Of a stretch of DNA of 49,195 nt, positions 27,840-45,307 are shown in pieces. Source of the DNA: an uncultured bacterium (GTDB lineage: Bacteria; Krumholzibacteriota; Krumholzibacteriia; Krumholzibacteriales; Krumholzibacteriaceae); assembly GCA_965371515.1 (NCBI GenBank), contig CBDUYR010000021.1, forward strand, positions 1 through 49,195, written 5' to 3'. Made by a program: the position numbers and the translations under genes. How positions within the stretch are numbered: the first letter of the stretch is position 1; each line of letters starts with the position of its first letter. Below the pieces are notes generated by a model. The model was not told the origin of the DNA. It saw nothing but the letters and a program-made list of their open reading frames with translations, and did no database searches.

Positions 27840-30800
27840 GTGGAGATCGTGCGTAACGCTGCGAGAACATTCTTCCCTGTGGCTATTGCCGCATTAGTGT
27901 GCCTGCTCTTCACGGCGCTGACCAGTACGCCGGTTCAGGCACAAACCTACACGCGACTGCAGGTACTGCTTCCAGGCGAGGTCGTCGCCCCCGGTACGGC
28001 TGAAGGCAAGGCCGGAACGCCGGTCGCCCAGGCAGCGGGAGTGCCGTTCACGGTACGGATCAGGGCATGCGACGACACATGGAATGCGGTGACGTCGATC
28101 ACCCACGCCATTTCCATCTCTTGCACCGACGCGAGCGCCGACCTTGTGGACCAGGTGACTCTGGCCGGCGGGGAAGCAGAACTCACCGCCACTCTTAACG
28201 CCGGAGGGACTTTCACCTTCACGGCCGGCGATCTTACCGACCCGACGATTTCCGACGCCGTATCGGCGGCGGTCGACGTCATGGTCCTGCAGGGATTCCT
28301 GTTCAACACGATCAGCCAGAAACACTGCTACGCCGGTGTGGCCGAGAACTACACGCTCACCGCGGTCGACGCAGGCGGGTCACCGGTAACGGGATTTACC
28401 GGCACGGTCCGGCTACGCGAGATCACGAGCTTCGGCGAGGGACGCATTACCCCCGATCAGATCGTCCTCACCAACGGGACCTGGGCGGGACAGCTGACGA
28501 TGTTCCGCGCCGATGAGAGCAGCATCAACCGCGGGAACGTCAACATCTACGCATTCCTCGAATCGGCGCCGGCGAAGAACGGGACGAGCGATCCGTTCAT
28601 CGTCCACCCCGATGCGTTCGCCAGGCTGCAGCTGATAGTACCTGGCCAGGATCCGCTGCCGGGAAGCGTCAGCGGTCTGACCGGATCGCCCGCCACGCAA
28701 GCGGCCGGCACGGACTTCGTGGTCGATGTCTTCGCGACCGATCAGTACTGGAATCCCGTTCCGAGCACGGACGTCGCGCTGATCACATCGAGCGACGTCG
28801 CGGCGAGCACACCGGTCTCGGGAGCTCTCAGCAACGGCTACAGTCAGTTCACCCTTTCGCTAGGAACGGTCGGAGCACAGACGCTGAACGTGACCGACCA
28901 GTCAAACGGCTCGATAACAGGTATGACATGCGCGCCGATCAATGTGATTCCGAGCGCGCCGGATCATTTCGAGATAAGCGCCATCGCCTCTCCCGTCACG
29001 GCCGGAGTTCCGGTCAGCGTTACGATCAGCGCGGTCGACGTCGGCGGGAATACGATCCCCGATTTCCATGGCGACGGCAGGCTCGCGGCCAACACCGGCC
29101 CGGGCAGCATCTCGCCCGAGGCGATCACCTTTGCCGGCGGTGAATGGACCGGCTCGATGACCTTCAGGGGAGCGGGAGCCGCCGTCTCGTTCACATGCTC
29201 AGATTACTCTACACCCCCTCATACAGGAACGAGCGGAAGTTTCCAGGTCCTGCCCGGCCCGTTCACGGGGCTGCAGGTCCTTCTGCCCGGGCAGACGGCC
29301 CGCGGCGGCACCGCTACTGGATACAGCGGCGAGCCGGAGGCTCATAACGCGGGATCGCAGTTCACGATCAGGGTCCGCGCGGCGGATGAATACTGGAACC
29401 TCGTCCCCGATGTGACCGACCGTGTCTCGCTCGAGTCGACCGACCTCTTCGCCGACATGCCGGCCGAGACTACACTTGTCGGCGGCGAGATCTCGCTGCC
29501 GGTGACGCTGTACTCATGCGGGATGCAGACGATAAGCTCAGCCGATATCGACGTTCCCTCCATCACGCCGCATACCTCGCGGCCGGTAGAGATCATACCG
29601 GGCGCCTATGCAAAGATACTGCTGCTCGCGCCGGGTGAGGAACCCGCGCCGGGCACCGAAGAGGGACGCACCGGCACTGCGACCGACCAATCGATCAACT
29701 ACTCATTTACAGTAATAGTCTATGCGACCGACCAGTGGTGGAACCCCGTAACGGGCGTCAGTGACGTGGTGCATATCACGTCGAACGATCCGCTGGCCGA
29801 GCTGCCGCCCGACACTCCGATGTCGAACGGGCGTGCCGACATGTCGCTGCGTCTCTCGACCGGGGGCTACCAGCAGATCACCGCGTCGAACGTCACGCAG
29901 CCGGCAATGCCGGTGAGCACGACGCAGGTACGCGCGATCTCCAGCGGGTTCCATCTCGAGGCCGAGGTGATCCCTTCGGCGGTGCAGGCGGGCGAAGAGT
30001 TCTCGCTCATCGTCAAGGTGACCAACGACGCGGGAAGCGTGATCCAGGAGATCAACTCGTTCGTCGAGCTGACATTCATGAACGCTTCGACGCAGGATCC
30101 GGGACGCGGCGAACTGCTCGTGACGAGCTTCCAGCTCCTCCAGGGCCAGCGCACCGTAACCGAGACTTACACCTTCGCCGAGCCGATCATCATCGTCGCC
30201 ACCGACGACGCGGGGAACTCTCCGGCAGTGACAGGCGTGCTCATCGTGAGTCCGGGTGATCCGGACGCGATAGAGCTGTCGTGCAGCCCCTCATGGGTCG
30301 GCGGCAACAAACACGCGACAGTCTCAGCGGCCGTGGTAGACGCGTTCGGCAACGGCATCCCCGACCAGGAGGTCGTGTTCGAGCTGATCGCGGGCGAGGG
30401 CACACTCACGCAGATCGACACGCTGACCGGCGACGACGGCGTAGCAGACGCCGATTTCCTCAGCTCGAAGGTGCCGGGGTTCAGCCGGGTGCGCGCTGAG
30501 GCCGGTGTGCAGGCCGCCGAACTCGACATCGAGACGGCGCTGGTCGATCCGAGCCTGCCCGGCGGGACGATAACGAACTATCCGAATCCATTCCATCCGG
30601 GAGATGGATCGACAACTATCGCATACAAGCTTTCGGACAACGCAAACGTCACGCTCCGCATCTTCACGGTGACCGGCAGTTACGTTCTGCGGAAGGATTT
30701 CCGCAGCGGCTCACCGGGCGGCATGTCGGGGCTGAACGAGTTCGCATGGGACGGCCGCAACGGAAACGGCAATTACGTCTCGAGCGGCGGGTATATCGTT

Positions 30801-30869
30801 CTCGTCGAGGCAGAGGGCCACGGCGAGACACTGCACGTGATGCGCCGCAGGGTCGGCGTCGTACGCTAA
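27840..30869 (+). CDS. Large secreted Ig-repeat protein with invasin-like domain and FlgD/T9SS-like C-terminal domain
   Basis: Signal peptide; four LQVLLPG..PG...G.P..Q.AG..F.V...A.D..WN.V repeats interspersed with other Ig-like units; VVDAFGNGIPDQEVVF; NYPNPF...WDGRNGNG...SSGGY. Confidence 0.78.
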   Translation: MEIVRNAARTFFPVAIAALVCLLFTALTSTPVQAQTYTRLQVLLPGEVVAPGTAEGKAGTPVAQAAGVPFTVRIRACDDTWNAVTSITHAISISCTDASADLVDQVTLAGGEAELTATLNAGGTFTFTAGDLTDPTISDAVSAAVDVMVLQGFLFNTISQKHCYAGVAENYTLTAVDAGGSPVTGFTGTVRLREITSFGEGRITPDQIVLTNGTWAGQLTMFRADESSINRGNVNIYAFLESAPAKNGTSDPFIVHPDAFARLQLIVPGQDPLPGSVSGLTGSPATQAAGTDFVVDVFATDQYWNPVPSTDVALITSSDVAASTPVSGALSNGYSQFTLSLGTVGAQTLNVTDQSNGSITGMTCAPINVIPSAPDHFEISAIASPVTAGVPVSVTISAVDVGGNTIPDFHGDGRLAANTGPGSISPEAITFAGGEWTGSMTFRGAGAAVSFTCSDYSTPPHTGTSGSFQVLPGPFTGLQVLLPGQTARGGTATGYSGEPEAHNAGSQFTIRVRAADEYWNLVPDVTDRVSLESTDLFADMPAETTLVGGEISLPVTLYSCGMQTISSADIDVPSITPHTSRPVEIIPGAYAKILLLAPGEEPAPGTEEGRTGTATDQSINYSFTVIVYATDQWWNPVTGVSDVVHITSNDPLAELPPDTPMSNGRADMSLRLSTGGYQQITASNVTQPAMPVSTTQVRAISSGFHLEAEVIPSAVQAGEEFSLIVKVTNDAGSVIQEINSFVELTFMNASTQDPGRGELLVTSFQLLQGQRTVTETYTFAEPIIIVATDDAGNSPAVTGVLIVSPGDPDAIELSCSPSWVGGNKHATVSAAVVDAFGNGIPDQEVVFELIAGEGTLTQIDTLTGDDGVADADFLSSKVPGFSRVRAEAGVQAAELDIETALVDPSLPGGTITNYPNPFHPGDGSTTIAYKLSDNANVTLRIFTVTGSYVLRKDFRSGSPGGMSGLNEFAWDGRNGNGNYVSSGGYIVLVEAEGHGETLHVMRRRVGVVR

Positions 30870-30882
30870 CGCAGGAGGAGCC

Positions 30883-32163
30883 ATGAATCGCATGCATACA
30901 TACAAACACAGAAGACGTGCGGCGTCCCTGGCTCTCGGTCTCTGCATCATCGCGGCCACCGGGACCAGCGTCCTAGCCCAGGAGGAAACAGGCGGCGCAC
31001 CGGGAGACTGGCTGTCGCGCTATGCCACGGCCCGCACGGTGGGATTCGGCGGCGCCTTCGTCGCCGTTGCCGATGAACCGATCGGCGCGCTCTGGAACCC
31101 GGCGAGCCTGACGCAGGTCTACCAGAACATGATCTTCGTCGAGACCGCCCGCCTCTTCGAGGAGACGACAATCAACAGCCTGAGCTTCGGCACGCCCGAG
31201 CGGCGTGTCATGCCCGGGTTCGGAATCACCATCATCTCGCTCAACTCGGGGACGTTCGAACGGACCAACGAGCTCAACGACGTCACGGGAGAATTCGGGG
31301 AGGGCGAGTTGGCATTTGTGCTCTCCGCCTCCAAGAGCGTTTCGCAGCGCTTCTCCCTCGGAGCCAACATCAAGCTGATCAGGCAGAAAATCGACGAATT
31401 CAGCGCTTCCGGCGCGGGCGTCGACCTCGGACTGCTCTTCCACCTGCTGCCTTCGCTGACAGTCGGCGCGTCGGCGCTCAATATCGGCGGCCCCAGTCTG
31501 ACGCTGCGTGAGACAAAGGAGACCTACCCGGTCGACTATCGGGGCGGCCTCACACTGCGCTTCCTCGCCGGTCGCGGGATGATAACTGCCGAGATCTCAA
31601 GCCGTCCGGATTACGAGACGAAGTTCCACGCGGGAACAGAGTTCTGGGCACACCCGATGCTCGCGCTCCGCGTTGGATACAATGACAGGTATTTTGCCGG
31701 CGGCGCCGGATTCGCGTTTCCGAACGGTATACGGATAGACTACGGAATGTCCGATCACCTGCTCGGCGTCACGCACCGCATAGGCCTCTCGTACGCATTC
31801 GGCGGTTTCTACGCCAGTTCGCAGGCCGACCCTCCGGTTTTCTCGCCGATCGGCGCGCAGTCGGTCACGAGATTCGACCTGGAGGCAAGGACCAAGGCCG
31901 AGGCGGTAAGCTGGAGTCTCGATATCGTCGATAAATCCGGTCAGATCGTACGCCGGTTCAGCGGAGCCGGCCTTCCGCCTGCCCACGTGATGTGGGACGG
32001 CAAGAACGAGACTGGCATGCCGCTGGCCGACGGCGTCTATACATATCAGCTCGTCGTCATCGACGCCGAGGGACGCAAAGTCGTCGGCAGGAAACGCTCT
32101 GTAGAGATCACGACGGCCGGCCCCCAGGGGGACGTGCCGATCATAATCGGAGAGGGCCTATAA
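30883..32163 (+). CDS. PorV/PorQ/PorP-like (FadL-type) beta-barrel fused to a C-terminal FlgD-like Ig domain
   Basis: ARTVGFGGAFVAVADEPIGALWNPASL, GVDLG, LALRVGY, IDYG..LGVTHRIGLSYAFG; then WSLDI...WDGKNETGMPLADGVYTY. Confidence 0.78.
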   Translation: MNRMHTYKHRRRAASLALGLCIIAATGTSVLAQEETGGAPGDWLSRYATARTVGFGGAFVAVADEPIGALWNPASLTQVYQNMIFVETARLFEETTINSLSFGTPERRVMPGFGITIISLNSGTFERTNELNDVTGEFGEGELAFVLSASKSVSQRFSLGANIKLIRQKIDEFSASGAGVDLGLLFHLLPSLTVGASALNIGGPSLTLRETKETYPVDYRGGLTLRFLAGRGMITAEISSRPDYETKFHAGTEFWAHPMLALRVGYNDRYFAGGAGFAFPNGIRIDYGMSDHLLGVTHRIGLSYAFGGFYASSQADPPVFSPIGAQSVTRFDLEARTKAEAVSWSLDIVDKSGQIVRRFSGAGLPPAHVMWDGKNETGMPLADGVYTYQLVVIDAEGRKVVGRKRSVEITTAGPQGDVPIIIGEGL

Positions 32164-32188
32164 CGTGGCCGCCGGGGGAGTGATAAGG

Positions 32189-35100
32189 ATGATCCTGACA
32201 GGACACATAAAGACATGGACCGCGGTGACGATACTGTCGCTGTGCCTCGCGTCCGGCGTTGCGAATGCCGGCGAAAAAGATGACGGAAAAGAAGCGGCTG
32301 TAAAGGGTAACGCCTCTGCCGTGAGCCCCGCGACGCTGGCGAGTGTCGGCATGGCTCTGGAAAATGCCAGGCTGCTCCCTCACGGGAAAAGACACGAAGC
32401 GCTCGAGAGGACCGCCGCGTCGATGGCGTCGATCTTCGAGTCGGGCCTGCCGAAGGAGAAGCGCTGCGCTGCGCACTTCCTCTCGGCGGAGATAAGCTTT
32501 TCCCTCGGCCTCTACGAACGCGCCGCGGAAGAATACCGTCGCGCCGGCGACAAGGATAAAGAAAAGATCTACAGGGACGATGCCGAAGCGGCGTACATCC
32601 TGGCGCTCGAGGCGTCCGGAAACGACGCGGAGGCAGCAAAGGCATGGATCAAATGGCGGAAAAAGTATTCCGACAGTCCGCTTATGCCCGAGGCGAAACT
32701 TGCCTCGGCGTGGAACGCCCTTCGCCGGGGCGACCTCAACGAGGCGGCCGGGATACTTGAAGATATCGGATCGCGCTACCCGTGGATGGGACAGGACCGG
32801 CGGGTCGTTCTTGCCGGATCGGTCATCGGGTACACCGGACAGTTCTACGAGGAGACTCTCGCGGAACTCGAGCCTCTCGAGGATTCGCCGGCGGTCGTCT
32901 ACCTGCGCGCCCTCTGCTACGAGGCGCTCGGCGAGACGCTCAAGGCGGCCTCGCGATACCAGGAAACAGCCGAACGCTGGCCGCATTCGCCCCTTCGCGA
33001 TACGGCGATGATGGCGAAGGCCGACATCTTCCTGCACGCCGGCGCCTACAGGAGCGCCGCGGAGGAGATGTCCCGAATCGTCGAAAAGTCGCGTCGCGAA
33101 GACATCAGGAGTGAGGCGGCGCTGCGCCAGGCGGTCGCAGTATGTCTCGACGGCGATACGGAACAGGCTATTCAGCTTCTGCGCGGCGTCACCGGTAAAT
33201 ACGCCGGCTCGACGGTAGCGGCGCGCGCCCAGTTTTTCCTGGGCGAAACGCTCTTCAGCACGGCCGCCTACAGGGAAGCGATCGTGGAGTTCAACCGCGT
33301 TCTCGCCAATTACTTCGAGCACGATCTCGCCGCGCGGGCACAGTACCGCGTTGGACGCAGCCTCGACGCCCTCGATCGCGGCGCAGAGGCGACAAGCGCC
33401 TACCAGGCCGTCGTCGCGGGATATCCCCTCTCGCCTGAAGCCCCCGCCGCCGCCTACCTGGCCGGCGTGGGACTGATGGACCTCGGGCGTCCGCTCGCCG
33501 CGGCGCCCTACTTCCAGCTCGTGATGGACAGGTACGCGAGGGCCGACAGTTCGGGGATGTTCGTATTCGCCAGCAGCGAGCACCAGGAACTCGTTGAGGC
33601 GTCGCTCTGCCTCCTCGAATACGCCTACCACACCGCCGGCGACCTCGGGCAGCTCTCGGGCGCTCCGCACCTTATGCTGCAGAAGATGCCGCCGAGCAAT
33701 TCGTCGTGGCGAGTCTACTCCATACTGATCGACGCCGACGCTCTCGCCTCACAGGGACGCTATGCCGAGGCGGAGTCGATGCTGAAAGGGCTGATCGACG
33801 AATTTCCCGCCCACACCGCCGTCATCCCGGCGAGCAGGCTGCTCGCATGGACGTACGCGCGCCAGGGCAACGACCAGCTGGCGATCGAAACGGAAGAGCG
33901 GATGCTCACCAGGTACGCCTCCAGCGGCGACAACGAGCACCTCAGCTCAGCATATTTCAACAAGGCAAATATCCTGTTCAACAGGAAGGAATACGAGGAA
34001 GCGGGCGCTTCGTACGACGATTTCCTCAGGAGATTCCCGGAGCACGACAAGTGTCTCGAGGCGCTGTACCGTTCAGGGCTCTGCTACCAGCGGCTCGAAC
34101 AGAACGGCGACGCCGTCGACCGCTGGGAAACGCTCGTGGCGACCGATTCGACAGGCGCGATCTGCGAGCAGGCGCTCGTGCGCGCCGGCGACCTGTATTT
34201 CAGGGCCGGGCATTACGAGGACGCGAAGCGCTGCTACGAAGCGCTGCTCGAGCGTTTCTGCTCGAGCGACAAGGCGCCTCTCGCCATGCTGAGGCTGGCC
34301 CAGAGCGAATACAACGCGGGTAACGACGAGGAAGCGCTGAAGCTTTATTCAGAGGTTACCTCACGCTTCCCGGAAAGCTATGCGGCCGACGAGGCCTTGC
34401 GCGGCATGGAACAGGCACTCTACAGGCTCGGCCAGGGCGACGATGGCAACGAGGTCCTCGCCAGACTCGTCGAGAACTTCGGCACAAGCCCGTTCGCGGC
34501 CGACGCCCAGTTCGAGATCGCCATGCGAAGCTACAAGGCCGAACAGTACGACGAGGCGGCGGAACAGTTCCGCCGCGTGACAAGCCAGTTCCCCGGTTAC
34601 TCGGCCGGAGACAGGGCCCACTACCTCATGGCCGAATCGTACCGCAAGGCGGGGAGCGTAAAGGAATCGGGGCTCTCCTATGAGCAGTTCCTGAATTTCT
34701 TCCCGCATAGCGAGTTCAGGTCGACGGTCCACTTCCGCCTCGGATCGATCAGGTTCGAGGAAGGAAGATACCTGCAGGCCGCCATAGATTTCACCGGCGT
34801 TCTCGACGAGGGGGCCCCGGAAGAGATAACAGCCGCATCTCTCTTCAACCTCGCCCTCTGCAGGCGCATGCTCGGCGAGACCGAGGCTGCAAGAGAGACT
34901 CTCGAGAAGTACAGAACGACCTACCCGTCCGGCAACGGCCGGACAGCGGAGATCGCCTACCAGCTCGGTGACATACACGAAGAGACGGGCAACGCCGCCG
35001 AGGCGATCAAGGAATTCAAGCGTGCCCTCGGCGCGAAGCCTCCCGCGGCGCTGACGATAGAGCTGCGCTACCGTATAGGTACGAGCAGGGAACAGCTCGG

Positions 35101-35329
35101 CGAGACCGACGAGGCCATACGGTCGTACGAAAAGGCGATGAAGGGCAGCAAAAAGACCGATCCGTTCCGTCTGCTCGCCGTGGTGAAATGTGCGGCGCTT
35201 TACGAGGAACAGGAAGCCTGGAAGAAGGCGATCAGCGCCTACCGGGATCTGATAAGAAATTCACAGGACGAGGAGCTGGTACTGGCGGCGAATGAGCGCG
35301 TCACCCAGCTCGAGGCTGTCGCCAGGTGA
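32189..35329 (+). CDS. Large exported TPR protein (CpoB/BamD-like TPR pairs)
   Basis: Signal peptide; repeated YP.S..A..A.F.LG TPR motifs throughout; alternative GTG start at 32165. Confidence 0.85.
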   Translation: MILTGHIKTWTAVTILSLCLASGVANAGEKDDGKEAAVKGNASAVSPATLASVGMALENARLLPHGKRHEALERTAASMASIFESGLPKEKRCAAHFLSAEISFSLGLYERAAEEYRRAGDKDKEKIYRDDAEAAYILALEASGNDAEAAKAWIKWRKKYSDSPLMPEAKLASAWNALRRGDLNEAAGILEDIGSRYPWMGQDRRVVLAGSVIGYTGQFYEETLAELEPLEDSPAVVYLRALCYEALGETLKAASRYQETAERWPHSPLRDTAMMAKADIFLHAGAYRSAAEEMSRIVEKSRREDIRSEAALRQAVAVCLDGDTEQAIQLLRGVTGKYAGSTVAARAQFFLGETLFSTAAYREAIVEFNRVLANYFEHDLAARAQYRVGRSLDALDRGAEATSAYQAVVAGYPLSPEAPAAAYLAGVGLMDLGRPLAAAPYFQLVMDRYARADSSGMFVFASSEHQELVEASLCLLEYAYHTAGDLGQLSGAPHLMLQKMPPSNSSWRVYSILIDADALASQGRYAEAESMLKGLIDEFPAHTAVIPASRLLAWTYARQGNDQLAIETEERMLTRYASSGDNEHLSSAYFNKANILFNRKEYEEAGASYDDFLRRFPEHDKCLEALYRSGLCYQRLEQNGDAVDRWETLVATDSTGAICEQALVRAGDLYFRAGHYEDAKRCYEALLERFCSSDKAPLAMLRLAQSEYNAGNDEEALKLYSEVTSRFPESYAADEALRGMEQALYRLGQGDDGNEVLARLVENFGTSPFAADAQFEIAMRSYKAEQYDEAAEQFRRVTSQFPGYSAGDRAHYLMAESYRKAGSVKESGLSYEQFLNFFPHSEFRSTVHFRLGSIRFEEGRYLQAAIDFTGVLDEGAPEEITAASLFNLALCRRMLGETEAARETLEKYRTTYPSGNGRTAEIAYQLGDIHEETGNAAEAIKEFKRALGAKPPAALTIELRYRIGTSREQLGETDEAIRSYEKAMKGSKKTDPFRLLAVVKCAALYEEQEAWKKAISAYRDLIRNSQDEELVLAANERVTQLEAVAR

Positions 35330-35356
35330 CCCCCGGCGATCACGGAGAAGGAGAGT

Positions 35357-36112
35357 GTGAAGATGTATTCAAACATCAACTGGCTTGAGGCCATAGGCAG
35401 CAGCCCGATATTCATCGTGCTTATCGGACTGAGCGTGGTCACGCTGGCAGCCGCCATAGAACGTTTGCATTACTTCTGGAAACGTAATGGTCAGGCCGAC
35501 GAGGCGCTCGACCGCGCGGCCAGGGAAATCCGACGCGGCGACCGCAAGGAGGCGAAACGGATCTGCGATTCCTGCAGTCACCCGTTCGGAGCAGTGGCCG
35601 GCTCGATCATAGAAACCGAAGGGCTCGACAGTGAGAAGACCGAGGAGCAGCTCCAGGTCTCACTGAGCCAGCAGCGGCTTCTTCTCGAGAACAATCTCGG
35701 CATCCTCGGCACGATGGCTGCCATCGCGCCGCTGGTCGGCCTGCTCGGAACGGTATGGGGCATCATGCGGGCCTTCCGCGACATGTCTTCGACCGGATCG
35801 GCAGCGCCGGCAATAGTGGCGGCCGGCATCGCCGAGGCACTGACTACCACTGCGGCCGGACTGATCATCGCCGTTCCGGCCCTGATGCTCTACAACCATC
35901 TCGCGCGGCGGATCAGCGTGATGCTCACGATCGCGGAGAACAACTCCCGTACACTTCGGCAGGAGCTCGAGAAATCGCCTGCCCCGGCTAAGTCGGACGA
36001 ACGATCCGGCAGCTCCGATCGTGAAGATGCCGCGTCAGGTGACGGACGAAAAGCCGATGAGATGAAAATCGAGGATGTAGCCGAGGAACTCGAGACAGTA
36101 ATGGCCGAGTGA
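35357..36112 (+). CDS. exbB: MotA/TolQ/ExbB proton channel protein
   Basis: LGTMAAIAPLVGLLGTVWGIMRAF, GIAEALTTTAAGLIIAVPA. Confidence 0.92.
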   Translation: MKMYSNINWLEAIGSSPIFIVLIGLSVVTLAAAIERLHYFWKRNGQADEALDRAAREIRRGDRKEAKRICDSCSHPFGAVAGSIIETEGLDSEKTEEQLQVSLSQQRLLLENNLGILGTMAAIAPLVGLLGTVWGIMRAFRDMSSTGSAAPAIVAAGIAEALTTTAAGLIIAVPALMLYNHLARRISVMLTIAENNSRTLRQELEKSPAPAKSDERSGSSDREDAASGDGRKADEMKIEDVAEELETVMAE

Positions 36113-36119
36113 GGTACTG

Positions 36120-36533
36120 GTGATGTCAGGAACGTCAAAGCCCGAAAAGGACAAAGGAATGCACGAGATCAACATGACGCCGCTGATCGACGTCTCGCTC
36201 GTGCTGGTCATCATGCTCCTGCTGCTCACACCGCTGGCCTTCGAATCGAGCATCGCGATCCGCAAGGCGGTCGCAAGCGCGAAGACCTCGGAAAAGAAGC
36301 TGAAGGAAGAGCGGATCGAGCTGAGTGTCGTCTCCGAGGACAGCATCCTCGTGAACAGGGCGCTCATCGCCCGCGTGGAACTGGCCGGCACGCTGCGGCC
36401 CATGCTGGAAAATAAGACCGACCGGCGGGTCGTTATTGAATGCAGCGACCAGGTCTCGCACGGCGTATTCGTGGACGTCCTCGACCAGGTAAAACTGTGC
36501 GGGGCCGGCGAGATAGCCGTGCTGGGGAGGTAG
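36120..36533 (+). CDS. exbD: ExbD/TolR family protein
   Basis: EINMTPLIDVSLVLVI with the conserved Asp; D..V.HG.FVDVLD. Confidence 0.9.
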   Translation: MMSGTSKPEKDKGMHEINMTPLIDVSLVLVIMLLLLTPLAFESSIAIRKAVASAKTSEKKLKEERIELSVVSEDSILVNRALIARVELAGTLRPMLENKTDRRVVIECSDQVSHGVFVDVLDQVKLCGAGEIAVLGR

Positions 36534-36540
36534 TGGAACT

Positions 36541-36966
36541 ATGAAACGCAAGATCTGCAGCAACGGTATACCGCTGCGTGCGGCGATAAACTTGACGCCG
36601 ATCATAGATGTAGCCCTCGTGCTGGTAATCATCCTGCTGATCACCGCACCGATGCTGGCGCTCGCCGACCTCGACATTACGCTGCCGGCAGCGGTGACAA
36701 GGGACGCCGAGGATGACCTCAAGATCAATATAACGCTGAGTAGTGATGGCGAGGTGGCGATAAACGAACATATCATCGGCAGGGAGAGATTCGAACAGGT
36801 ACTCGAAGGGCTGCTGTCGAGCGGGGATAACTATGATGTACTCGTCGTGCTCCGCGCCGACACGGAGGTACCGTACTCGTCTATCAGGATGGTACTCGCC
36901 GAGGCGAAATCGGCGGGAGCGCGCAGGCTTGCTATCGCGACGATCCAGAGAGGCGGAGGTGAATGA
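36541..36966 (+). CDS. exbD: ExbD/TolR family protein, second copy
   Basis: INLTPIIDVALVLVIILLITAP, LRADTEVPY. Confidence 0.9.
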   Translation: MKRKICSNGIPLRAAINLTPIIDVALVLVIILLITAPMLALADLDITLPAAVTRDAEDDLKINITLSSDGEVAINEHIIGRERFEQVLEGLLSSGDNYDVLVVLRADTEVPYSSIRMVLAEAKSAGARRLAIATIQRGGGE

Positions 36967-37892
36967 TGAACGCATTCGCGCTCAGCCTCGAACTGGGGAG
37001 ACAGCAGTCGAGGAGGAGAAAGACCGCGGGCGTCAGCCTGATCCTCCACGCACTGCTGCTACTGTGGCTTATTCTGCACAGGACGATGGCGCCGGAGTCT
37101 GAAGCGCTCACGGAGATCACCTGGATAGAGCCGGAACCGATCCGGCCCGCCGCGGCCGCTGCTTCAATAGAGCCGTCGCGTCCTGTCAGACGCACTCCGC
37201 CGTCGCCGATGCAGACGCCCGAGCATTTCGTGCGCAAGACCAAAAAGAGCGATTTCGCCCCGCAGCCGCAGATGGTCCGGGCCGCGAAGGACAGGCTGCA
37301 GAGCAAGCTGACCTCGCTCGAGAGAACGACGCAATCTAACCGGCCGAAGATCGCCTCCCTGGCTACATCCAGGATATCCGACCACCCGTCTCTGGCGGCG
37401 GTCCCCGACAGGACCGCGACCGAGAGAGGATCGATCGCGCTCGACCGCAGCGAAAGTACGGATGCGAGGCCGGTTCAGCTGGCCCGCAGCGATAAGCCCC
37501 AGGCCAGATCGCCCGTGAGGCTCGGGACCATCCCCGAGAAGACCGTGACGCAGGCGAACGTCGCCAGTGCCGATTCTACGGCACGGCGAATGATCGACGG
37601 GATGAGTCTCGTCGGCCCGGTCGCCGACAGGATGCTCATCAGCTACGGCAAGCCCGGTTATCCAGACTGGGCCAAACGCGAGGGTATCGAGGGCGCGGTG
37701 GATCTCTACTTCATCGTACTGCCCAATGGAAAGGTAAAGGAAAACATACTTGTACAGAGAACATCGGGATTCAAGGATTTCGACCGCAACGCGATCGATG
37801 CGCTTATCGCCTGGAAGTTCGAGCCGCTCAGCGGCGGACAGACCGGAGAGCAGTGGGGCGCGATCACGTTCGACTACCGGCTCAGCGATTGA
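36963..37892 (+). CDS. tonB: TonB-family energy transducer
   Basis: TM with SLILH, Pro-rich linker, TonB_C YPDWAKREGIEGAVDLYFIVLPNGKV...SG..FDRNAIDA...WKFEP. Confidence 0.88.
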   Translation: MMNAFALSLELGRQQSRRRKTAGVSLILHALLLLWLILHRTMAPESEALTEITWIEPEPIRPAAAAASIEPSRPVRRTPPSPMQTPEHFVRKTKKSDFAPQPQMVRAAKDRLQSKLTSLERTTQSNRPKIASLATSRISDHPSLAAVPDRTATERGSIALDRSESTDARPVQLARSDKPQARSPVRLGTIPEKTVTQANVASADSTARRMIDGMSLVGPVADRMLISYGKPGYPDWAKREGIEGAVDLYFIVLPNGKVKENILVQRTSGFKDFDRNAIDALIAWKFEPLSGGQTGEQWGAITFDYRLSD

Positions 37893-37928
37893 GGGCCGGA
37901 CCCGAAGGAACGAGGGGAGTACTGGATC

Positions 37929-38879
37929 ATGAAAAGTAACAGATTACGACTACTGATGTTCCCTGTCATCGTCTTCACCGCTGCGGCGATTTGCGTCCCC
38001 GCGCGGGCGGACGGGACCAAGGCTGAGCCCGACAGCGGCATGGTGCTCGAGGGAGGCAAGGAAGGGACCGCATTCAAGAGGATGACGATCGAGGGCGAGG
38101 ACCGTTTCAGGATCGACTTCGAACGTCCCTCGCTGAGGATCGACCTCGATCCCTCCAAGGCCCCCGGCCTCGACTGGGACAACACCTGGGAAATTCTCGC
38201 TGAAGGCACGATCGACCTTCAGGCTCCACTTCTCATGATTTCCGCCGCGGAATCATCGCCCTATCTCCCGCGCCCGTGGTTCAATGAATACGCCAGCGGG
38301 GACATCGTGCAGTTCCGTCCCTCTCTGACCGACGTGGATCACTGGCGGTTGACGATCGCCGATTCGCGAAGCGGAGAGGTCAGGGCATTCGAGGGCAAGG
38401 GAAATCCCCCGAAGAAGATCGGGTGGGACGGCCTCTCGCAGGCCGGCACGCCGATGCCGCCCGGATATACCTATTCGTACATGGTCGAGGCGTGGGACCG
38501 TGCGGGGAACAAACGAAACTTCGTGGGAAAGGGCTTCGGCCTGCCGGCCTACCGCGTCGAGACCAATGAGGGGATTGTATTCCTCTTTCCCGGCAGTGAT
38601 CTCGGAGGCCGCGCTTCCTCCCGGGGGCCGGCGAAAAGAACGCACCCTCCCGCAATTCTCGAAGCGGCGAGCAGGATCAATCAGGATAACGACTGCCGCA
38701 GGACTATCCGTATACTGGCGACCGCGAGGACCTACGACCAGGCGGGAAGTATGGCCGAGTCCGTCGCTAACTCGCTCGGCGACCTGATTCTGGGTGACAC
38801 GGCGCGGATACAGCACATAGCCGATGTGCAGCCCGATGCCCCCGAGGCGGGTACGGTCGCTATCGTCCTCGATCGCTAA
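37929..38879 (+). CDS. Exported protein with FlgD-like Ig domain and possible degenerate OmpA-like C-terminus
   Basis: Signal peptide; WRLTIAD...FEGKGNPP..IGWDG...YSYMVEAWDRAGN resembles the C-terminal domain of 30883-32163. Confidence 0.65.
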   Translation: MKSNRLRLLMFPVIVFTAAAICVPARADGTKAEPDSGMVLEGGKEGTAFKRMTIEGEDRFRIDFERPSLRIDLDPSKAPGLDWDNTWEILAEGTIDLQAPLLMISAAESSPYLPRPWFNEYASGDIVQFRPSLTDVDHWRLTIADSRSGEVRAFEGKGNPPKKIGWDGLSQAGTPMPPGYTYSYMVEAWDRAGNKRNFVGKGFGLPAYRVETNEGIVFLFPGSDLGGRASSRGPAKRTHPPAILEAASRINQDNDCRRTIRILATARTYDQAGSMAESVANSLGDLILGDTARIQHIADVQPDAPEAGTVAIVLDR

Positions 38880-38929: not shown

Positions 38930-39067
38930 GAAACAGGAGAAGGCCGGGTTCCCTTTTTACAGGTACCCGGCCTCCTCAGGACAACCCCGCTGCTCACCTC
39001 TTCCGCTTTCTTCAGCAAAAGCTTCTTCGCAACTCGGTTTTCCCTCCGGTTCGCGAATTGCTGGCGA
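38930..39067 (-). ncRNA. Candidate sigma54-dependent small RNA (~140 nt)
   Basis: Lies between the -24/-12 promoter at 39078-39093 and the 38935-38976 hairpin; no credible ORF. Confidence 0.5.
38935..38976. terminator. GC-rich hairpin between the operon end and the convergent candidate sRNA
   Basis: AGAAGGCCGGG...CCCGGCCTCCT stem; only a weak U-tract on the minus strand. Confidence 0.55.
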
Positions 39068-39242: not shown

Positions 39243-40622
39243 TCAGCTCGAAATACCGTAATCGGCCATGCCGTACGACTTGAGTTTATTCTGCAGGGTG
39301 CGCCTGCCGATGCCGAGGGCATCGGCGGCCTTCGTGCGGTTGCCGTCGAATTTATCGAGCGCCGCGATGATCGCCTGCTTCTCTATCTCCCGCATCGGGC
39401 GAACCTGGAACTCCGGCTTTCCGGTCGCGGACTGCCGGAGAAGCGCTTTAACGTCATCTGCCGATATTGTAGTCCCGGACATCGTGATCGCGAGCCGCTC
39501 CACGAAGTTCTTCAGCTCGCGCAGGTTCCCCGGCCACGGGTAATCGATCAGGACGGCGACGGCATCATCGTCGATCTCGGCGAATCTCCCGAGGCTGCCA
39601 CTGGAACCGATCCGCAGGAAGTGCCTCGCCAGCTCGGGGATATCCTCCCTCCTGTTGCGCAGCGGCGGCAGTGTGATCGGAAACACGTTGAGGCGATAGT
39701 AAAGGTCCTCCCTGAACCTGTCCTCCTCCATCAGCTTCTCGAGGTGCTGGTGCGTGGAGGCTATTATCCTCGCACGGCTGTACTGAACCGTTTTCCCTCC
39801 CACCTTCTTGAACGATCCGTCCTCGAGCACGCGCAGGATCTTGGCCTGAAGGTCGTGATTCAGATCGCCTATCTCGTCCAGGAGCAGGGTGCCGTTGCCC
39901 GCCGTCTCGAAGACCCCCGCATGGTCAGAGATCGCGTTGGTAAAGGAACCCTTGACGTGACCGAACATCTCGCTCTCCATCAGCTCCCGCGGTATCGCCG
40001 CGCAGTTCGCCACGACAAAGGGCCTCTTCCTCCTCGACGAGAGCCGGCGGATCGCACGTGCGATCACTTCCTTACCCGTGCCCGTCTCTCCTCGAAGAAG
40101 CACCGTCGTATCGGAATCTGCCACGCTGCGGACGAGTTCCATGGCCCTTCGAAGGCCTCTCCTCTCGCCGATTATCGCGGTGAAGGGCTCGTCGGCGGCG
40201 CGCCTCAGGTAATCGACCTCCTTGCGCAGCTGAAAACTCTCGATGGCCCTCTCGACGAGGACCCCGAGGCGCTTGAAGTCGAGCGGTTTCGTGATGAACT
40301 CGTAGGCGCCTTCCTTTATGGCCTCTACGGCCATATCGATCGTGCCGTGTGCGGTCATGATGATCACGGGCACTGACGGGAATCGGTCCCGGATCTGCTT
40401 GAGTCCCTCCAGCCCGCTCTGGTCGGGCAGAAAGATATCGAGCAGGGCGAGCTGGCAGCTTTCCCGGTCGAGCACTTCCAGGGCCTCCGCGAGGCTGGAG
40501 GCCTGGCTGACCCTGTACCCCCCGTCGACGAGACGGTCGGACAGAATTATCCGAAGGTTCTCGTCGTCCTCGACGACAAGTATCCGTGCCGCGCCGTTAC
40601 GTCCATTTTCAGGCTGGTTCAT
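39243..40622 (-). CDS. sigma54-dependent response regulator (NtrC family)
   Basis: ILVVEDD / LLDIFLP receiver, GETGTGKE, ESEMFGHVKGSFTNA, LLDEIG, FREDLYYRL, WPGNLREL, Fis-type HTH. Confidence 0.93.
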   Translation of the reverse strand: MNQPENGRNGAARILVVEDDENLRIILSDRLVDGGYRVSQASSLAEALEVLDRESCQLALLDIFLPDQSGLEGLKQIRDRFPSVPVIIMTAHGTIDMAVEAIKEGAYEFITKPLDFKRLGVLVERAIESFQLRKEVDYLRRAADEPFTAIIGERRGLRRAMELVRSVADSDTTVLLRGETGTGKEVIARAIRRLSSRRKRPFVVANCAAIPRELMESEMFGHVKGSFTNAISDHAGVFETAGNGTLLLDEIGDLNHDLQAKILRVLEDGSFKKVGGKTVQYSRARIIASTHQHLEKLMEEDRFREDLYYRLNVFPITLPPLRNRREDIPELARHFLRIGSSGSLGRFAEIDDDAVAVLIDYPWPGNLRELKNFVERLAITMSGTTISADDVKALLRQSATGKPEFQVRPMREIEKQAIIAALDKFDGNRTKAADALGIGRRTLQNKLKSYGMADYGISS

Positions 40623-40667
40623 AATCGAAGTCCCGTTTAAATTCCGTGGATTCAGTGTATTATTTAT

Positions 40668-40805
40668 TGCACATAACATACCACCGGCCGGCCGCCGGCT
40701 CCGAGGAGTTTACTCGTTATATATAAGCATGTTACGATTTCAATCACCTCTCCAGTGAAAGAGATCCATGCAATCGCCGCCTAAAAATTGCGCAGTTTCT
40801 GCGCA
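40668..40805 (-). promoter_or_regulatory. sigma54 promoter and enhancer site of the response regulator gene
   Basis: TGGTATGTTATGTGCA (40683-40668, GG-N10-GC); perfect TGCGCA-GTTTC-TGCGCA at 40789-40805. Confidence 0.72.
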
Positions 40806-40891
40806 GCGATTATGCCTCCCATCCACTATGGAAGTACACTGTTTTTTAGGATTGAATGCGGTCGACGGAATTATCGCCGCCGGTCCATGAT

Positions 40892-43800
40892 TCAGAGGGG
40901 CAGCGTGAAGGTGATGACCGCGCCTCCTGCCGGAGAGTTCATCAACGTTACCGAGCCGCCGTGGAGCTCGACGAGCTGCTTGACGATCGCCAGCCCCAGT
41001 CCGGCCCCGCGCTTCCCCTTCGATCCCGCGGGACGTGAATAGAACGGCTCGAACAGCCTGGACGCATCCTCCTCCGATATCCCCGGCCCCTGGTCGAGGA
41101 CCGAGATCCGCAGCATCCGGCGACCATCCGTCTCGTCGACCGGAATATCCTCGATCCTCATCTCGATCATCCCTCCTTCGGGAGAGTGCTGCACGGCGTT
41201 CGATACGATGTTGTTGACTATCTGCCAGACTCTCGTCCTGTCCACCTGGACGACAGTCCCCTGGGCAGTGACAGTCAGCCGGCTCGTCAGCCCTTCCCTC
41301 TCGAGGAGAGGCTGAATGGAGCGCAGCAGATCCTCCGCCTCCCGCCGGATATCGAGCGGCTCGATATCGAGGACCAGGCGGCCGCTCTCGATCCTCGAGA
41401 GATCGAGCAGGTCGGTGATCATTCCCTGCAGGTTGCCGCTGCTCTTCAAGATCATTTCGAGGTAGGTCCGCTGGCGGTCGGTGACCGGGCCGGCGACCTC
41501 CTCGAGGATGTTCTCGGCGGCTCCTCTTATCGACGAAAGCGGCGTCTTCAGGTCGTGGCTGACCATCGATATGAAATGGCTCTTGAGCTCGCTTACTTCC
41601 TCGACCTTCTGCTTCTCCGCGAGTTCCCTGATCGTTTCTCTCAGGCTGTCCGCCATACTGTCGAACGAACGCGCGGCCAGACCGATCTCCGACCTGCCCG
41701 TATCCTCGAGACGGTAATCGAGATCGCCCTCGCCCACCCTTCTGAGCCCGGTCAGCAGACGGGTCAGGGGACGGGCAGTCCGTCTGAAGGTCGTGTATGC
41801 CCCCCAGAACGAAAGCCCCAGCGGTAGAAGGATCAGAAGGATGACCGGCATGAGGACCCGCGGCATATCGCCGCCGGCCGGGACGTAGAAGTTTGCCCTG
41901 TAGACTACCCAGCGCGTCGTCCCGGAGTTCCAGTCCCGCGCCTGCAGCACCAGCTCGCTGTTGTAGGGAATATACCATCCCTCGGGCCGGCTTCTGTCGG
42001 TAGTCGACTCGAGCCACGCGGGCTCCAGATGGACACGTGGAAGAAAGTCAAGGACCCGGAGGCACTCTTCCAGATTTCTGAGGATCTTGTCGTCGATGGG
42101 AATATGACTCACCAGCTGGGCCTCGATATTACTGCTGCGAAGCGTTCGCATGGCGCGGATGACCACCGTACCGTTGTCCAGAAAGAGACCCTTGATATTA
42201 TCCCCGCCCGTCCAGGACGGCCTCGTGTAGTAAAGCTTCCCCGTTCGCGGAGCGCGATAGGAATACCCGGTGAAATACCGGCCGGGATCCTCCCTGTCCC
42301 TGGCCCACAGCGTTATGTATGCCGTCGGCAGGTCGTAGGTGAACAGCAATTCCGATTCGGCCACAAAGTTCAGCCAGCTCGTCTCCGTGGTCTGATCGAG
42401 CAGTTCGCCCGCTCTATTGTCGAGCCCGGCGACGAAATTCGCGTTCCCCATGTATGAAAGGACCATGTTATCGGCCCTTGTCTCCAGTTCGCTCATCGTT
42501 TCCTCGATGATGTTCCGCTGAACACCCAGAAAGAGACTCGCGCCGACGATTATTATCACCGACAGCGGAATGAGGCTGACGACAAGATATGAACCCAGCA
42601 GTGCGAAGTTCAGTCTCCTGCTCCTTCGTGAGGTGAGGATGCGATGCAGCGCCACCACCACTCCTGTAAAGCCCACCATGTGCAGAAGGACTTCGAGCGT
42701 GCGGCCGGCTGCCGGAACCGGGCCGGTATTCAGCCGCCCCTGGTGAAGGATAACGGTTCCGGTCACGTAGAGCACACCGAAGGTCACGATCCACCACCAG
42801 CTCAATCTTGCCTTCGCTTTATCCCTCTGCCTGCCCGCGAACAGCAGATATATGAATGGCAGAAGAAGAACGGTCGCAAGATCCATCCACTGCGAGCTGG
42901 GCCTTTCGAAATCCTCCATGGTCAGAAGGATCGACAGTTTCGGGCCGCCGGAAGGATACGCCATCTTGAACTCCCGGGCAGGCTGCACGATGCCGAGCCA
43001 CGGACTGATGCTCCGGTAGGGCCTGACGCTGGCCCCACCCCAGGCCAGTGTCCTTCCATCGACCTGGATATGGGCCGACAGACCTGTAGCATCCGCGATT
43101 TCGTTGGGAACCCTGTTCAGAAGGCTCGAGAGCAGGAAGAAACGAAGCGTATCCTGTCCTGCTACAACACCTGATGAGCTTTCCCCCGCATATACGGGCG
43201 TATTTCCCACCAGGATCAGATCCGGCACGCCTGTTCCTGAGAGGCCCAGCTCCGAGAGATGCGTCCATCCCCTGGCCAGCCCCACTCCCTGTATGACATT
43301 GCCGGACAGATCGGCGAGCAGCAGGCCGGTAAAACTGTATTCGAGCCGGTTATGATCGGCCAGCCGCTCGAGACAGCGGAGCGCCTTCATGGGATCCTTC
43401 AGGCTGCCGGCACGGCATGAATCCAGGCCGGCTGCCAGCTCGTCCGCCATCGACAGGACCTTCGCGTGCTCTTCTGCCAGGACGCTCTGGACGGTAACTT
43501 CCGCTTCCGCCAGACGATCCTTCGCTGCCGCGTACCTTCGCAGATCGCCCGTGAAAAAAATCGCCCGTATGACTATGATCAGAAGTATTAAGAGCAGAGT
43601 CCCTTTCAGCCACCGCTTCGGAGAATCGGAATATCCCGGTAACTCCGTCCTGAGGATGTGCACCAGAAGCAGCAGCAGGATTATGATCGCGATCAGAATT
43701 GCGTAGTAGACCGGAGGCCATTCCGAGAATACGCGCGAATCCGGTCGCCGGCCGGCGCCGTCGATCTTCCACGGACGGCCGGGATCGAGATGATAAGCGA

Positions 43801-45178
43801 ACACCGTCTCCCCGAACTGCCCGACAACGAGTTCCTTCATGCCCTCACCGTCGAGCTGCGCGAGTGCCAGCCCCTGCACTATGAAATCTTCGAGAACGAC
43901 CGGCCATCCGGGAACGGGCGTTCCGTCGAGCTCGAAGCAATAGAGGTGAAGATCGTAGCATCCCAGTATCACCTCCTGCTCGCCGTCTCCATCCACGTCG
44001 GACATGATCGGCGGGCCGTACACCATATGATTTTCCTGCTTTTCAGGGATGCCGTATATGAACCCGTCCAGACGCACCGGCCATCCCGGCAGCAGATTTC
44101 CTTCCAGATCCCAGATATATACGTAGCCATCGTGGGTAGACGTCAGCACGAGATCGGCCTTCCGTTCCGGCTCTCCCCGGGATGAAAGAAACCAGGGCGC
44201 CGTGAAAATCCTGCTGTCACGGTTCACAGGCGAAAACGATCTGACACTGTCGCCTTTCAGATCGAGAAGGAACACCTCGTTTATCGTCGTGCACGCGATG
44301 TACCGTGGATTCGCTCTGTCGTCTACCGCAAGACCGAAGCCGCGATGATCTCCCATCGCGACGGGAAATCCCGGATATTCCATCCCGTCAATATGCCAGG
44401 CGTAGAGAAATGCCGGCCATGAAGTGAGGTGGAGTATCTCCTGCGACCCGTCCCCGTCGAGATCGACCGCCCATGTCGACCGATAGTCAAAACTACCTGC
44501 CGAAGTCCTGTGCGGAAGCGTTTTCGGCCATCCTTTACGGCTCACTCCCCTCGGGGAAAGGAGGTGAACGATGCCGGGCTCGACGGAAACGAGTACAGAT
44601 GCGTCACTCGACGAACCGGAGCGGACGAGTATCGGTGCGGAAACCGCTGTGCCCTCCAGGTCCAGGGGCCAGCCGCTCACGATGCTTCCATCCTCATGCC
44701 ACATATGCAGGAAGCCGTCGATGCTTCCCGCGGCTATCTCGTATTCGCCGTCGCCGTCGATATCCTCCAGCATCGGGCCCCGGGCTATCCAGGAGGCAGT
44801 CTCACGGGGCCAGCCGGGCAGGTTCTTCCCGTCCCCGTCGAGCAGGAACACGCGGCAGTCCTTTACGCCGACGGCGATCTCGTCCCTGCCGTCGCCGTCG
44901 ATGTCGGCCACGGCGGGAGTGTACCTGATGGAGTTGTCGAGGATGACGGGCCAGTTCCTCACCGGGCGCGGACCGGCGGGAAGGATCCTCCGTATCGTGT
45001 CGGGGGAATCGTTTGCCTTCACCGCCGTTGGTGACAGCGAGAACGGCAGGAGGACGGCAAGCGCCATTATAAGTGCGGACAGCCCTGAAGTGAAAGGCCG
45101 CCGTCGGACGGCGGCGCTATCGGCCTTATGACGGGATGTGGAATGCATCCCCTGTATTCTAGCATTTTCAGCGGGCAC
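40892..45178 (-). CDS. Giant sensor histidine kinase with N-terminal FG-GAP/VCBS-like propeller, several TM and extracytoplasmic segments, HAMP, HisKA, HATPase; start uncertain
   Basis: DIDGDG..EI and PGWP repeats; HAMP PLTRLLTGLRRVGEGDL..EIG; SHDLKTPL; NIVSNA, DQGPGI, GAGLGL. Confidence 0.88.
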   Translation of the reverse strand: MPAENARIQGMHSTSRHKADSAAVRRRPFTSGLSALIMALAVLLPFSLSPTAVKANDSPDTIRRILPAGPRPVRNWPVILDNSIRYTPAVADIDGDGRDEIAVGVKDCRVFLLDGDGKNLPGWPRETASWIARGPMLEDIDGDGEYEIAAGSIDGFLHMWHEDGSIVSGWPLDLEGTAVSAPILVRSGSSSDASVLVSVEPGIVHLLSPRGVSRKGWPKTLPHRTSAGSFDYRSTWAVDLDGDGSQEILHLTSWPAFLYAWHIDGMEYPGFPVAMGDHRGFGLAVDDRANPRYIACTTINEVFLLDLKGDSVRSFSPVNRDSRIFTAPWFLSSRGEPERKADLVLTSTHDGYVYIWDLEGNLLPGWPVRLDGFIYGIPEKQENHMVYGPPIMSDVDGDGEQEVILGCYDLHLYCFELDGTPVPGWPVVLEDFIVQGLALAQLDGEGMKELVVGQFGETVFAYHLDPGRPWKIDGAGRRPDSRVFSEWPPVYYAILIAIIILLLLLVHILRTELPGYSDSPKRWLKGTLLLILLIIVIRAIFFTGDLRRYAAAKDRLAEAEVTVQSVLAEEHAKVLSMADELAAGLDSCRAGSLKDPMKALRCLERLADHNRLEYSFTGLLLADLSGNVIQGVGLARGWTHLSELGLSGTGVPDLILVGNTPVYAGESSSGVVAGQDTLRFFLLSSLLNRVPNEIADATGLSAHIQVDGRTLAWGGASVRPYRSISPWLGIVQPAREFKMAYPSGGPKLSILLTMEDFERPSSQWMDLATVLLLPFIYLLFAGRQRDKAKARLSWWWIVTFGVLYVTGTVILHQGRLNTGPVPAAGRTLEVLLHMVGFTGVVVALHRILTSRRSRRLNFALLGSYLVVSLIPLSVIIIVGASLFLGVQRNIIEETMSELETRADNMVLSYMGNANFVAGLDNRAGELLDQTTETSWLNFVAESELLFTYDLPTAYITLWARDREDPGRYFTGYSYRAPRTGKLYYTRPSWTGGDNIKGLFLDNGTVVIRAMRTLRSSNIEAQLVSHIPIDDKILRNLEECLRVLDFLPRVHLEPAWLESTTDRSRPEGWYIPYNSELVLQARDWNSGTTRWVVYRANFYVPAGGDMPRVLMPVILLILLPLGLSFWGAYTTFRRTARPLTRLLTGLRRVGEGDLDYRLEDTGRSEIGLAARSFDSMADSLRETIRELAEKQKVEEVSELKSHFISMVSHDLKTPLSSIRGAAENILEEVAGPVTDRQRTYLEMILKSSGNLQGMITDLLDLSRIESGRLVLDIEPLDIRREAEDLLRSIQPLLEREGLTSRLTVTAQGTVVQVDRTRVWQIVNNIVSNAVQHSPEGGMIEMRIEDIPVDETDGRRMLRISVLDQGPGISEEDASRLFEPFYSRPAGSKGKRGAGLGLAIVKQLVELHGGSVTLMNSPAGGAVITFTLPL

Positions 45179-45307
45179 GCCTGGAATGTTTCTTTATCGT
45201 CACGAGATGTCACAGATTTGGTTTATGTGTTCAGGGGTCGCGTGATATACTACTCTCGTTTTCACAAGGGTATGAACCTTGTTCCACAATTCAAAGGAGG
45301 CCGCACG

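Follow-up and report, generated by a model that had tools for sequence, protein, structure and literature searches.

An eight-gene operon of Krumholzibacteriota combines a predicted type IX cargo and its likely PorV-family carrier with an ExbB-ExbD-ExbD-TonB motor

To our knowledge, the carriers in type IX secretion systems (T9SS) are known to take force solely from GldLM through the GldKN track. In ExbB-ExbD motors, the flow of protons is used to pull on TonB, and the membrane Asp of ExbD has a role in this process. Several described systems resemble parts of the locus studied here. The T9SS triplets of Bacteroidota (PG1035-PorP-PorE and five operons of F. johnsoniae) are described as static (PMC12618676), SprF and PorG carry tail cysteines for disulfide coupling (PMC12635249), and in Tol-Pal, TolA pulls TolB (PMC7066135); PMC12505986 and PMC6118199 provided background only. 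Here, we analyzed a stretch of 49,195 nucleotides from an uncultured member of the Krumholzibacteriaceae (contig CBDUYR010000021.1; hereafter, the window), which holds an operon of eight genes, g1 to g8, encoding a predicted T9SS cargo, a carrier barrel, a tetratricopeptide repeat (TPR) scaffold, an ExbB-ExbD-ExbD-TonB motor, and an exported adaptor. The gene content, gene order, protein families, predicted folds, ExbB clade, and distribution of the operon are established. We tentatively prefer, at somewhat less than an even chance, to read it as a motor-switched anchor, in which TonB would pull the arm of the adaptor g8 and shift, tension, or release the carrier–adhesin complex after export.

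Eight tightly packed open reading frames (ORFs) lie on the + strand at 27840..38879, with intergenic distances from g1 to g8 of 13, 1, 27, 7, 7, -4, and 36 nt, as the original prediction had described. Its statement that the operon holds no TonB-dependent receptor and no tolB or pal was also borne out for the eight genes in Pfam and NCBIfam, and genes of both kinds are encoded elsewhere in the genome, outside the operon. A promoter scan returned one site, with 2.9 expected. The features are as follows.

27840..30869, + strand: g1, cargo of 1009 amino acids (aa) with a signal peptide, about eight immunoglobulin (Ig)-like repeats, and a T9SS-type C-terminal domain (CTD)
30552..30866, + strand: CTD of g1 (residues ~905-1009), belonging to a variant class; its nearest match among those listed is a second CTD, one adjoining a PorV-family gene
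30883..32163, + strand: g2, PorV/PorQ-family barrel followed by a FlgD-type Ig domain, 426 aa
32165..35329, + strand: g3, exported TPR scaffold, 1054 aa, with Pfam and NCBIfam TPR matches
35357..36112, + strand: g4, ExbB/TolQ-family subunit of an operon-specific clade, 251 aa (PF01618, 116.8 bits)
36120..36533, + strand: g5, first ExbD/TolR-family subunit, membrane Asp24, 137 aa (PF02472, 73.7 bits)
36541..36966, + strand: g6, second ExbD/TolR-family subunit, membrane Asp23, 141 aa (PF02472, 83.9 bits)
36963..37892, + strand: g7, TonB with an anchor at residues 20-40, a linker of ~175 residues, and TonB_C, 309 aa (PF03544, 52.5 bits)
37929..38879, + strand: g8, exported adaptor of 316 aa with an unfolded N-terminal arm, a CTD/FlgD-like Ig domain, and an OmpA-like domain (model and alignments)
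38076..38099, + strand: TonB-box-like strand at residues 50-57 of the g8 arm, candidate target of TonB (arm conservation and a relaxed box pattern)
38541..38876, + strand: g8 domain with an OmpA-like fold (mature residues 178-289) and a changed motif (VIA-align to 4b62_A)
38937..38977, + strand: G+C-rich hairpin 3' of g8, possible terminator (-26.7 kcal/mol when a 60-nt fragment was folded, without a shuffle control), not among the calls of the terminator scan

The operon is conserved as a unit. The genome is 99.6% complete, and its closest named relatives are Candidatus Krumholzibacteriota, followed by Eisenbacteria, Latescibacterota, and one Zixibacteria record, which places it in Krumholzibacteriota; a few records under other phylum labels may be mislabelled. 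g8 was present in 18 of 40 relatives; in 12 of these 18, a single stretch carries the eight genes in the operon order (in one case with the cargo split in three), and the other six are broken by contig ends. Among the best 80 of 91 GTDB loci, some from genomes shared with those 18 relatives, all eight genes stood in order in 43 of the 43 loci that extend 9 kb or more upstream, and wherever the contig reached, the expected neighbor was found: TonB in 70/70, the two ExbDs in 65/65 and 60/60, ExbB in 58/58, the TPR protein in 52/52, the barrel in 46/46, and the cargo in 44/44. A profile for distant members matched in 82 of 121 genomes of the phylum, some with two or three matches, and 20 distant loci were fetched, comprising 18 with the whole order, one cut, and one with an armless g8-like gene outside any operon. 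In the distant type, the cargo is ~2240-2410 aa long and TonB ~400-460 aa; the cargo occurs in two fixed lengths. Because every long locus holds the order, the arrangement is not a matter of chance, and because the flanking genes differ between genomes, the eight-gene block behaves as one module. The cargo–barrel pair and the exbBD-tonB block, whose partnership was the core of the original prediction, are co-conserved in the long and the distant loci alike. The operon is absent from many complete-looking relatives, including all five in its own genus (0/5). In the 17 relatives without g8, a search that had no operon-bearing genome for comparison gave only partial matches to the operon TonB profile (at most 41.4 bits), which are read as ordinary TonBs.

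The cargo g1 contains Big_1 (40.5 bits) and FlgD_ig (30.4 bits), both above cut-off, in agreement with its predicted identity as an Ig-repeat protein with a T9SS/FlgD-like tail. Hydrophobic residues 6-34 form the signal peptide, and internal repeats at residues 40, 263, 478, and 593, together with a second repeat type, were found by phmmer and missed by a BLAST self-search, making up about eight Ig-like repeats. The look-alikes of g1 in the ESM Atlas are Ig-like, a PDB sequence search with g1 gave no match, and neither the short nor the long form has a recognised catalytic or binding domain. With a signal peptide and a C-terminal Ig-fold sorting domain that matches the CTD regions of PorZ and PorU, g1 has the build of a T9SS substrate. 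Its CTD scores 17.1 bits against TIGR04183 (type A; cut-off 23), and the CHU_C (type B) model gave no match in Pfam or NCBIfam. Among the matches listed, this CTD reaches 55.7 bits with a carrier-adjacent CTD on contig C12 versus at most 39.2 bits with other CTDs of the genome, scores that fit a cognate cargo–carrier class. The C12 protein (G000:C12:18860-28965, L151) has 2704 aa and adjoins a PorV barrel whose long C-terminal extension looks TPR-like by eye; signalling-type genes come next, and a similar extended barrel lies at C29:113-2002. In one relative (G007, L019:10185-13218), the cargo gene is spread over three frames that overlap, and the other seven genes are intact, reflecting either sequencing error or decay. 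Two more CTD proteins, with DUF1491-like repeats and CTDs of the generic class, are encoded in the window at 5653-8100 and 45128-47983 (+).

The carrier g2 was predicted to be a FadL-type, PorV/PorP-like barrel with an extra FlgD-like domain. The barrel and the extra domain hold, as an Ig domain follows 14 barrel strands in the model (pLDDT 81) and a FlgD_ig match is present. The PorP-like part does not: g2 matches the PorV/PorQ family (NF033709, 106.6 bits; cut-off 90), its best Foldseek matches are the PorV chains 8gl6_F and 6h3i_F (E 5.8e-10), and no PorP/SprF family matched at E 0.01 in Pfam or NCBIfam, so PorP/SprF was ruled out. Because the barrel has an even number of strands, its Ig domain is probably periplasmic. 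The tail of g2 has no conserved cysteine (only Cys21). A flagellar FlgD identity was rejected for the Ig domains of g2 and g8, since they match the PorU CTD and Ig-OmpA struts and no MotA-type gene is found among the four PF01618 matches of the genome. The scaffold g3 matches SprE/PorW weakly (106.4 bits; cut-off 250) and exceeds the YbgF/CpoB cut-off through its many repeats (270 versus 90.1 bits).

Natural fusions bring the families of g2, g3, and g8 together. A search among longer proteins (33 matches from 7993 scored candidates) recovered P0271, which joins a PorV barrel, four g2/g8-type Ig domains, and a canonical OmpA domain in one chain, as well as P0275-P0277, which join a PorV-type barrel to a TPR region of the g3 family (608-812 bits by profile, or 608-808 taking profile or best domain sum, versus at most 203 for other TPRs of the genome). 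The next relatives of the g8 Ig domain are long Ig-repeat-OmpA proteins. These proteins and the fusions suggest that a single barrel-to-wall strut includes g2, g3, and g8. P0122 and its relatives, of 1000-4000 aa, carry 6-24 tandem FlgD-type Ig repeats, and the four that were checked end in an OmpA domain; such proteins are likely periplasm-spanning struts with repeats annotated as FlgD or CHU_C.

The adaptor g8 had been described as an exported FlgD-like protein, which captures its Ig domain and misses both the conserved arm at its N terminus and its OmpA-like fold. By sequence, FlgD_ig scores 19.3 bits (cut-off 27). The model (mean pLDDT 80.7) comprises an unfolded arm (pLDDT <60), an Ig domain that resembles the PorU CTD (Z 9.3, rmsd 2.2), and a domain of OmpA-like fold that aligns to 4b62_A by VIA-align (Z 10.5, rmsd 3.1, 107 residues aligned), one of several OmpA-like domains matched at Z 10.5 and 10.4; Foldseek matches include YfiB, PA0833, and MotB. 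Although the arm is unfolded in the model of g8 alone, it equals the folded Ig domain in conservation (0.75 versus 0.73); its core is S-L-T-V-E-G-E (short type) or E-M-V-V-E-A-E (long type). A strict TonB-box pattern of the PROSITE type fits 4/4 E. coli transporters. A relaxed pattern, chosen after the alignment was viewed, fits 65 of 86 g8 homologues versus 2.25 in shuffles, 0/15 barrels, 0/14 TPR proteins, 1/11 cargos, and 14/19 distant operon-linked g8 arms. We treat this TonB-box-like pattern as a single, modest line of evidence. The single armless g8-like gene examined (L171) has no operon around it.

The motor is encoded by g4 to g7. g4 belongs to MotA_ExbB and has three hydrophobic segments, and g5 and g6 are both ExbD proteins. 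In g7, ~20 residues precede the membrane helix, Ser25 and His29 are invariant in the alignment, and TonB_C, whose alignment columns average 72% identity across 71 sequences, is an ordinary member of TIGR01352. ExbB, ExbDs with a membrane Asp, and a TonB with a membrane His and TonB_C together identify g4-g7 as a Ton-type motor; a functional role of the membrane His has been described (PMC7066135). Four ExbB/TolQ (PF01618) genes are present in the genome, namely g4, one in the Tol-Pal locus on C17, one in a TonB-ExbB-ExbD set on C6, and one in an ExbB-ExbD-ExbD-TonB set on C1, and none resembles flagellar MotA by context. In a tree of 41 rows, three of them long-branched and none an AglR sequence, the operon ExbBs form their own clade of 12 rows (support 100/99), which the distant-type operon ExbBs join at 91/86. 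This clade stands apart from the TolQ, C6, and C1 (TBDR-linked) groups, so that the operon ExbB does not side with the receptor-serving or Tol-Pal paralogues of its genome.

The C1 operon (G000:C1:88243-99086, L149) encodes a TonB-dependent receptor, a CTD protein, a PorV-family barrel, a GWxTD protein, and ExbB-ExbD-ExbD-TonB, and its ExbB group occurs in relatives both with and without the eight-gene operon; it is a candidate surface-capture/uptake module or a more general motor. Since this receptor-linked operon shares the layout of one TolQ-type and two TolR-type subunits, we rejected the pair of ExbDs as a sign of AglRQS, and the layout by itself does not point to the myxobacterial motor. 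In another genome (L160:15661-17412, G148), the second ExbD and TonB share a single frame of 584 aa, which is either a real fusion or an assembly error.

As a motor-switched anchor, the operon would work in five steps. The cargo g1 would be exported via SprA of the genome and stay on its own barrel g2, as the CTD class and the gene pairing suggest. The periplasmic Ig domain of g2 would connect, by way of g3 and the g8 Ig domain, with the OmpA-like domain of g8 at the wall, to judge from the fusions. ExbB-ExbD-ExbD would convert proton flow into a pull on TonB, as expected of the family, and the TonB-box-like strand of g8 would serve as the partner of TonB_C, as TolB does for TolA, an analogy in line with the motif. 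Given the patchy distribution, the pull would alter the state of the anchor after export and would not be the power source for general secretion.

Several observations weigh against this scheme. The strict TonB-box pattern fits 0/86 g8 homologues and 2/24 in the distant set, and the relaxed pattern is post hoc, was scored on homologues that are not independent, also fits 83 of 2561 long ORFs of the genome, and is absent from 5/19 distant arms, where a strand-like stretch is kept at the same place. The strand of g8 in the window itself fits neither pattern. Covariation between TonB_C and g8 (mutual information with average product correction, 71 pairs, effective 48) did not rise above row shuffles (top z 8.5 versus a shuffle maximum of 9.0). 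The canonical wall-binding motif of OmpA-like domains relies on Asp and Arg. In g8, Ala-Thr-Ala-Arg stands where the canonical sequence is Gly-His-Thr-Asp, and the family reads T-A-R and A-x-x-L-A at the motif positions by eye. PF00691 gave no match in g8, nor did its OmpA-like domain give a profile match to Pal of the genome or to the OmpA domain of P0271. Because of the changed motif and the missing profile matches, g8 may not bind the wall; the divergent domain of SiiA is described as still able to do so (10.1101/641415). The fusion proteins are just 25-33% identical and are known here without gene context, and the term adhesin for g1 is derived from its Ig-rod build, no binding domain being recognised.

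The genome encodes components of the type IX machinery. SprA (TIGR04189, 468.6 bits; cut-off 200) and PorU (559.4 bits; cut-off 420) are present, a PorV gene adjoins sprA, and there are 11 PorV-family matches, 74 FlgD_ig matches that are mostly C-terminal sorting domains, and several other cargo–carrier pairs without such a motor alongside. In the search for SprA and GldKLMN that the original prediction had called for, no Gld protein exceeded its cut-off: by hidden Markov model (HMM), GldM was found in 0/61 genomes of the class, GldN in 0/5, and GldL in 0/4, and the best GldK score was 100 bits against a cut-off of 350. The positive control, a Parabacteroides record with sprA, was silent as well, giving no GldL match, and the absence rests on HMM negatives only; a second control route showed no GldK among 60 of 452 records listed. 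SprA_N occurs in 23/25 operon-bearing genomes and in 12/17 relatives without g8. As these 12 retain SprA without the operon, the operon is not a general T9SS motor, and a general replacement motor for T9SS was ruled out; the operon is accessory, and general type IX export in the group is independent of it.

A narrower role in export is somewhat unlikely. The same chain could act as a private energiser that extracts the g2–cargo complex from the SprA translocon and does no later work. Release of the carrier–substrate complex from SprA is described as the energy-requiring step (PMC10994853), and the lack of GldL/M/N matches, the GldK score far under cut-off, the weak SprE/PorW match of g3, and the co-occurrence with SprA are consistent with such a role. 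However, SprA genomes without the operon and cargo–carrier pairs without an adjacent motor imply that extraction is managed without it, and an OmpA-like domain would be unnecessary for extraction. Of the hybrid machine originally predicted, in which a TonB-type motor energises export, display, or movement of a CTD protein, the pairing of motor and cargo is supported by co-conservation, the separate ExbB clade, and SprA, PorU, and PorV without Gld matches, and general export is not.

It is quite unlikely that the operon is a Tol-Pal-like envelope tether, in which the motor would regulate an outer membrane-to-wall link formed by g2, g3, and g8 and the cargo would be a passive surface-layer or spacer element. 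In g8, an unfolded N-terminal strand reminiscent of TolB does occur together with a fold like that of Pal (compare PMC7066135), and g3 is above the YbgF/CpoB cut-off. However, a full Tol-Pal locus already exists on contig C17, many complete-looking relatives do without the operon, and the cargo is kept in every locus where the contig reaches it, in its two fixed lengths.

A processive surface motor that moves the adhesin along the cell in gliding-like motility, as in Agl-Glt, is improbable. The parts list is shared, including a candidate unfolded strand donor (GltF in Agl-Glt; PMC11761067 and PMC9946355), and none of the PF01618 genes is MotA-like. However, Glt homologues stayed below cut-off (NF033768, 19.8 bits, cut-off 40; GltE, 16.7 bits, cut-off 225), no Glt family was found in the 86 g8 homologues, g7 has no cytoplasmic FHA domain, and the operon has no cytoskeletal or track component. 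The Agl-Glt core alone is described as insufficient for motility (PMC3169522). Adjacent PilB-like and PilT ATPases are encoded at G000:C8:46168-48265 (L176), so the host may be able to move by means of type IV pili. Lastly, an ordinary TonB set that serves transporters elsewhere and merely adjoins the cargo–carrier pair is highly improbable: the genome has four TonB-dependent transporter matches over cut-off (PF00593 matches lie on contigs other than that of the operon) and TonB_C is a normal family member, but the strict eight-gene linkage largely refutes this possibility, the ExbB clade is separate, and two other ExbBD-TonB sets are present, one beside a transporter.

Converging on the operon, a sigma-54 response regulator and a histidine kinase of 1428 aa with an FG-GAP propeller sensor lie at 39243-45178 (-) of the window; among the loci examined, this pair adjoins the operon only in the closest relative.

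If the motor-switched anchor is true, a T9SS carrier would be coupled to an unrelated motor family, providing an undescribed force route onto a type IX-secreted adhesin. TonB_C and a short strand on a soluble adaptor would form a link that is accessible with purified proteins despite the uncultured hosts. Moreover, the presence of SprA, PorU, PorV, and dozens of CTD proteins without detected GldKLMN, in many cases also without the operon, raises the question of how secretion is powered. A bolder joint claim, which we consider unlikely, is that Krumholzibacteriota and neighboring phyla assembled a third surface-force machine independently of GldLM and Agl-Glt, with Ton-driven T9SS adhesins acting through a soluble TonB-box anchor in active retraction or gliding-like movement. 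The papers listed on T9SS or PorV with ExbB/ExbD/TolQ/TonB in these phyla did not mention the operon in titles or the opening of abstracts, the scope covered for those sources.

Each of the known systems shares part of the design of the operon. Like the Ton system, it has the motor subunits and TonB_C, whereas it holds no transporter and its candidate box is on the soluble adaptor g8. Like Agl-Glt, it combines one TolQ-type and two TolR-type subunits, a TonB-like transducer, and a TPR scaffold with a candidate unfolded strand donor, a barrel, and an adhesin, and GltF is predicted to add a strand to TonB_C (PMC3169522, PMC11761067, and PMC9946355); however, no Glt family exceeds its cut-off and no FHA domain is present here, the barrel and the adhesin come from T9SS, and the resemblance is likely convergent. 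In Tol-Pal, a motor likewise pulls on a soluble periplasmic protein by its unfolded N-terminal box and changes a wall anchor (PMC7066135), as we propose here, whereas the operon lacks a TolB propeller and a Pal lipoprotein, places the box and the OmpA-like fold on one chain, and would act on a carrier–cargo complex. Salmonella SiiAB-SiiE also sets a proton-channel pair and a divergent domain of the wall-binding type beside a giant Ig-repeat adhesin (10.1101/641415), but SiiE is a type I secretion substrate and Sii has no TonB, barrel carrier, or TPR protein. As in the chain of SprB-SprF, GldLM, and GldJKN (PMC10994853 and PMC12635249), inner-membrane force would reach a carrier-held surface adhesin, although no GldL/M/N match is found here, ExbBD-TonB would supply the power, and the tail of g2, unlike those of SprF and PorG, has no disulfide-coupling cysteines. 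In the Bacteroidota triplets too, one operon brings together a cargo with a CTD, a carrier barrel of its own, and a wall anchor that has an OmpA fold and TPR, whereas here the carrier is of the PorV/PorQ family, the TPR and OmpA-like chains are separate and not lipoproteins, the binding motif differs, and the operon includes a Ton motor. By this analogy, the operon resembles a static cargo-carrier-PorE arrangement plus a motor.

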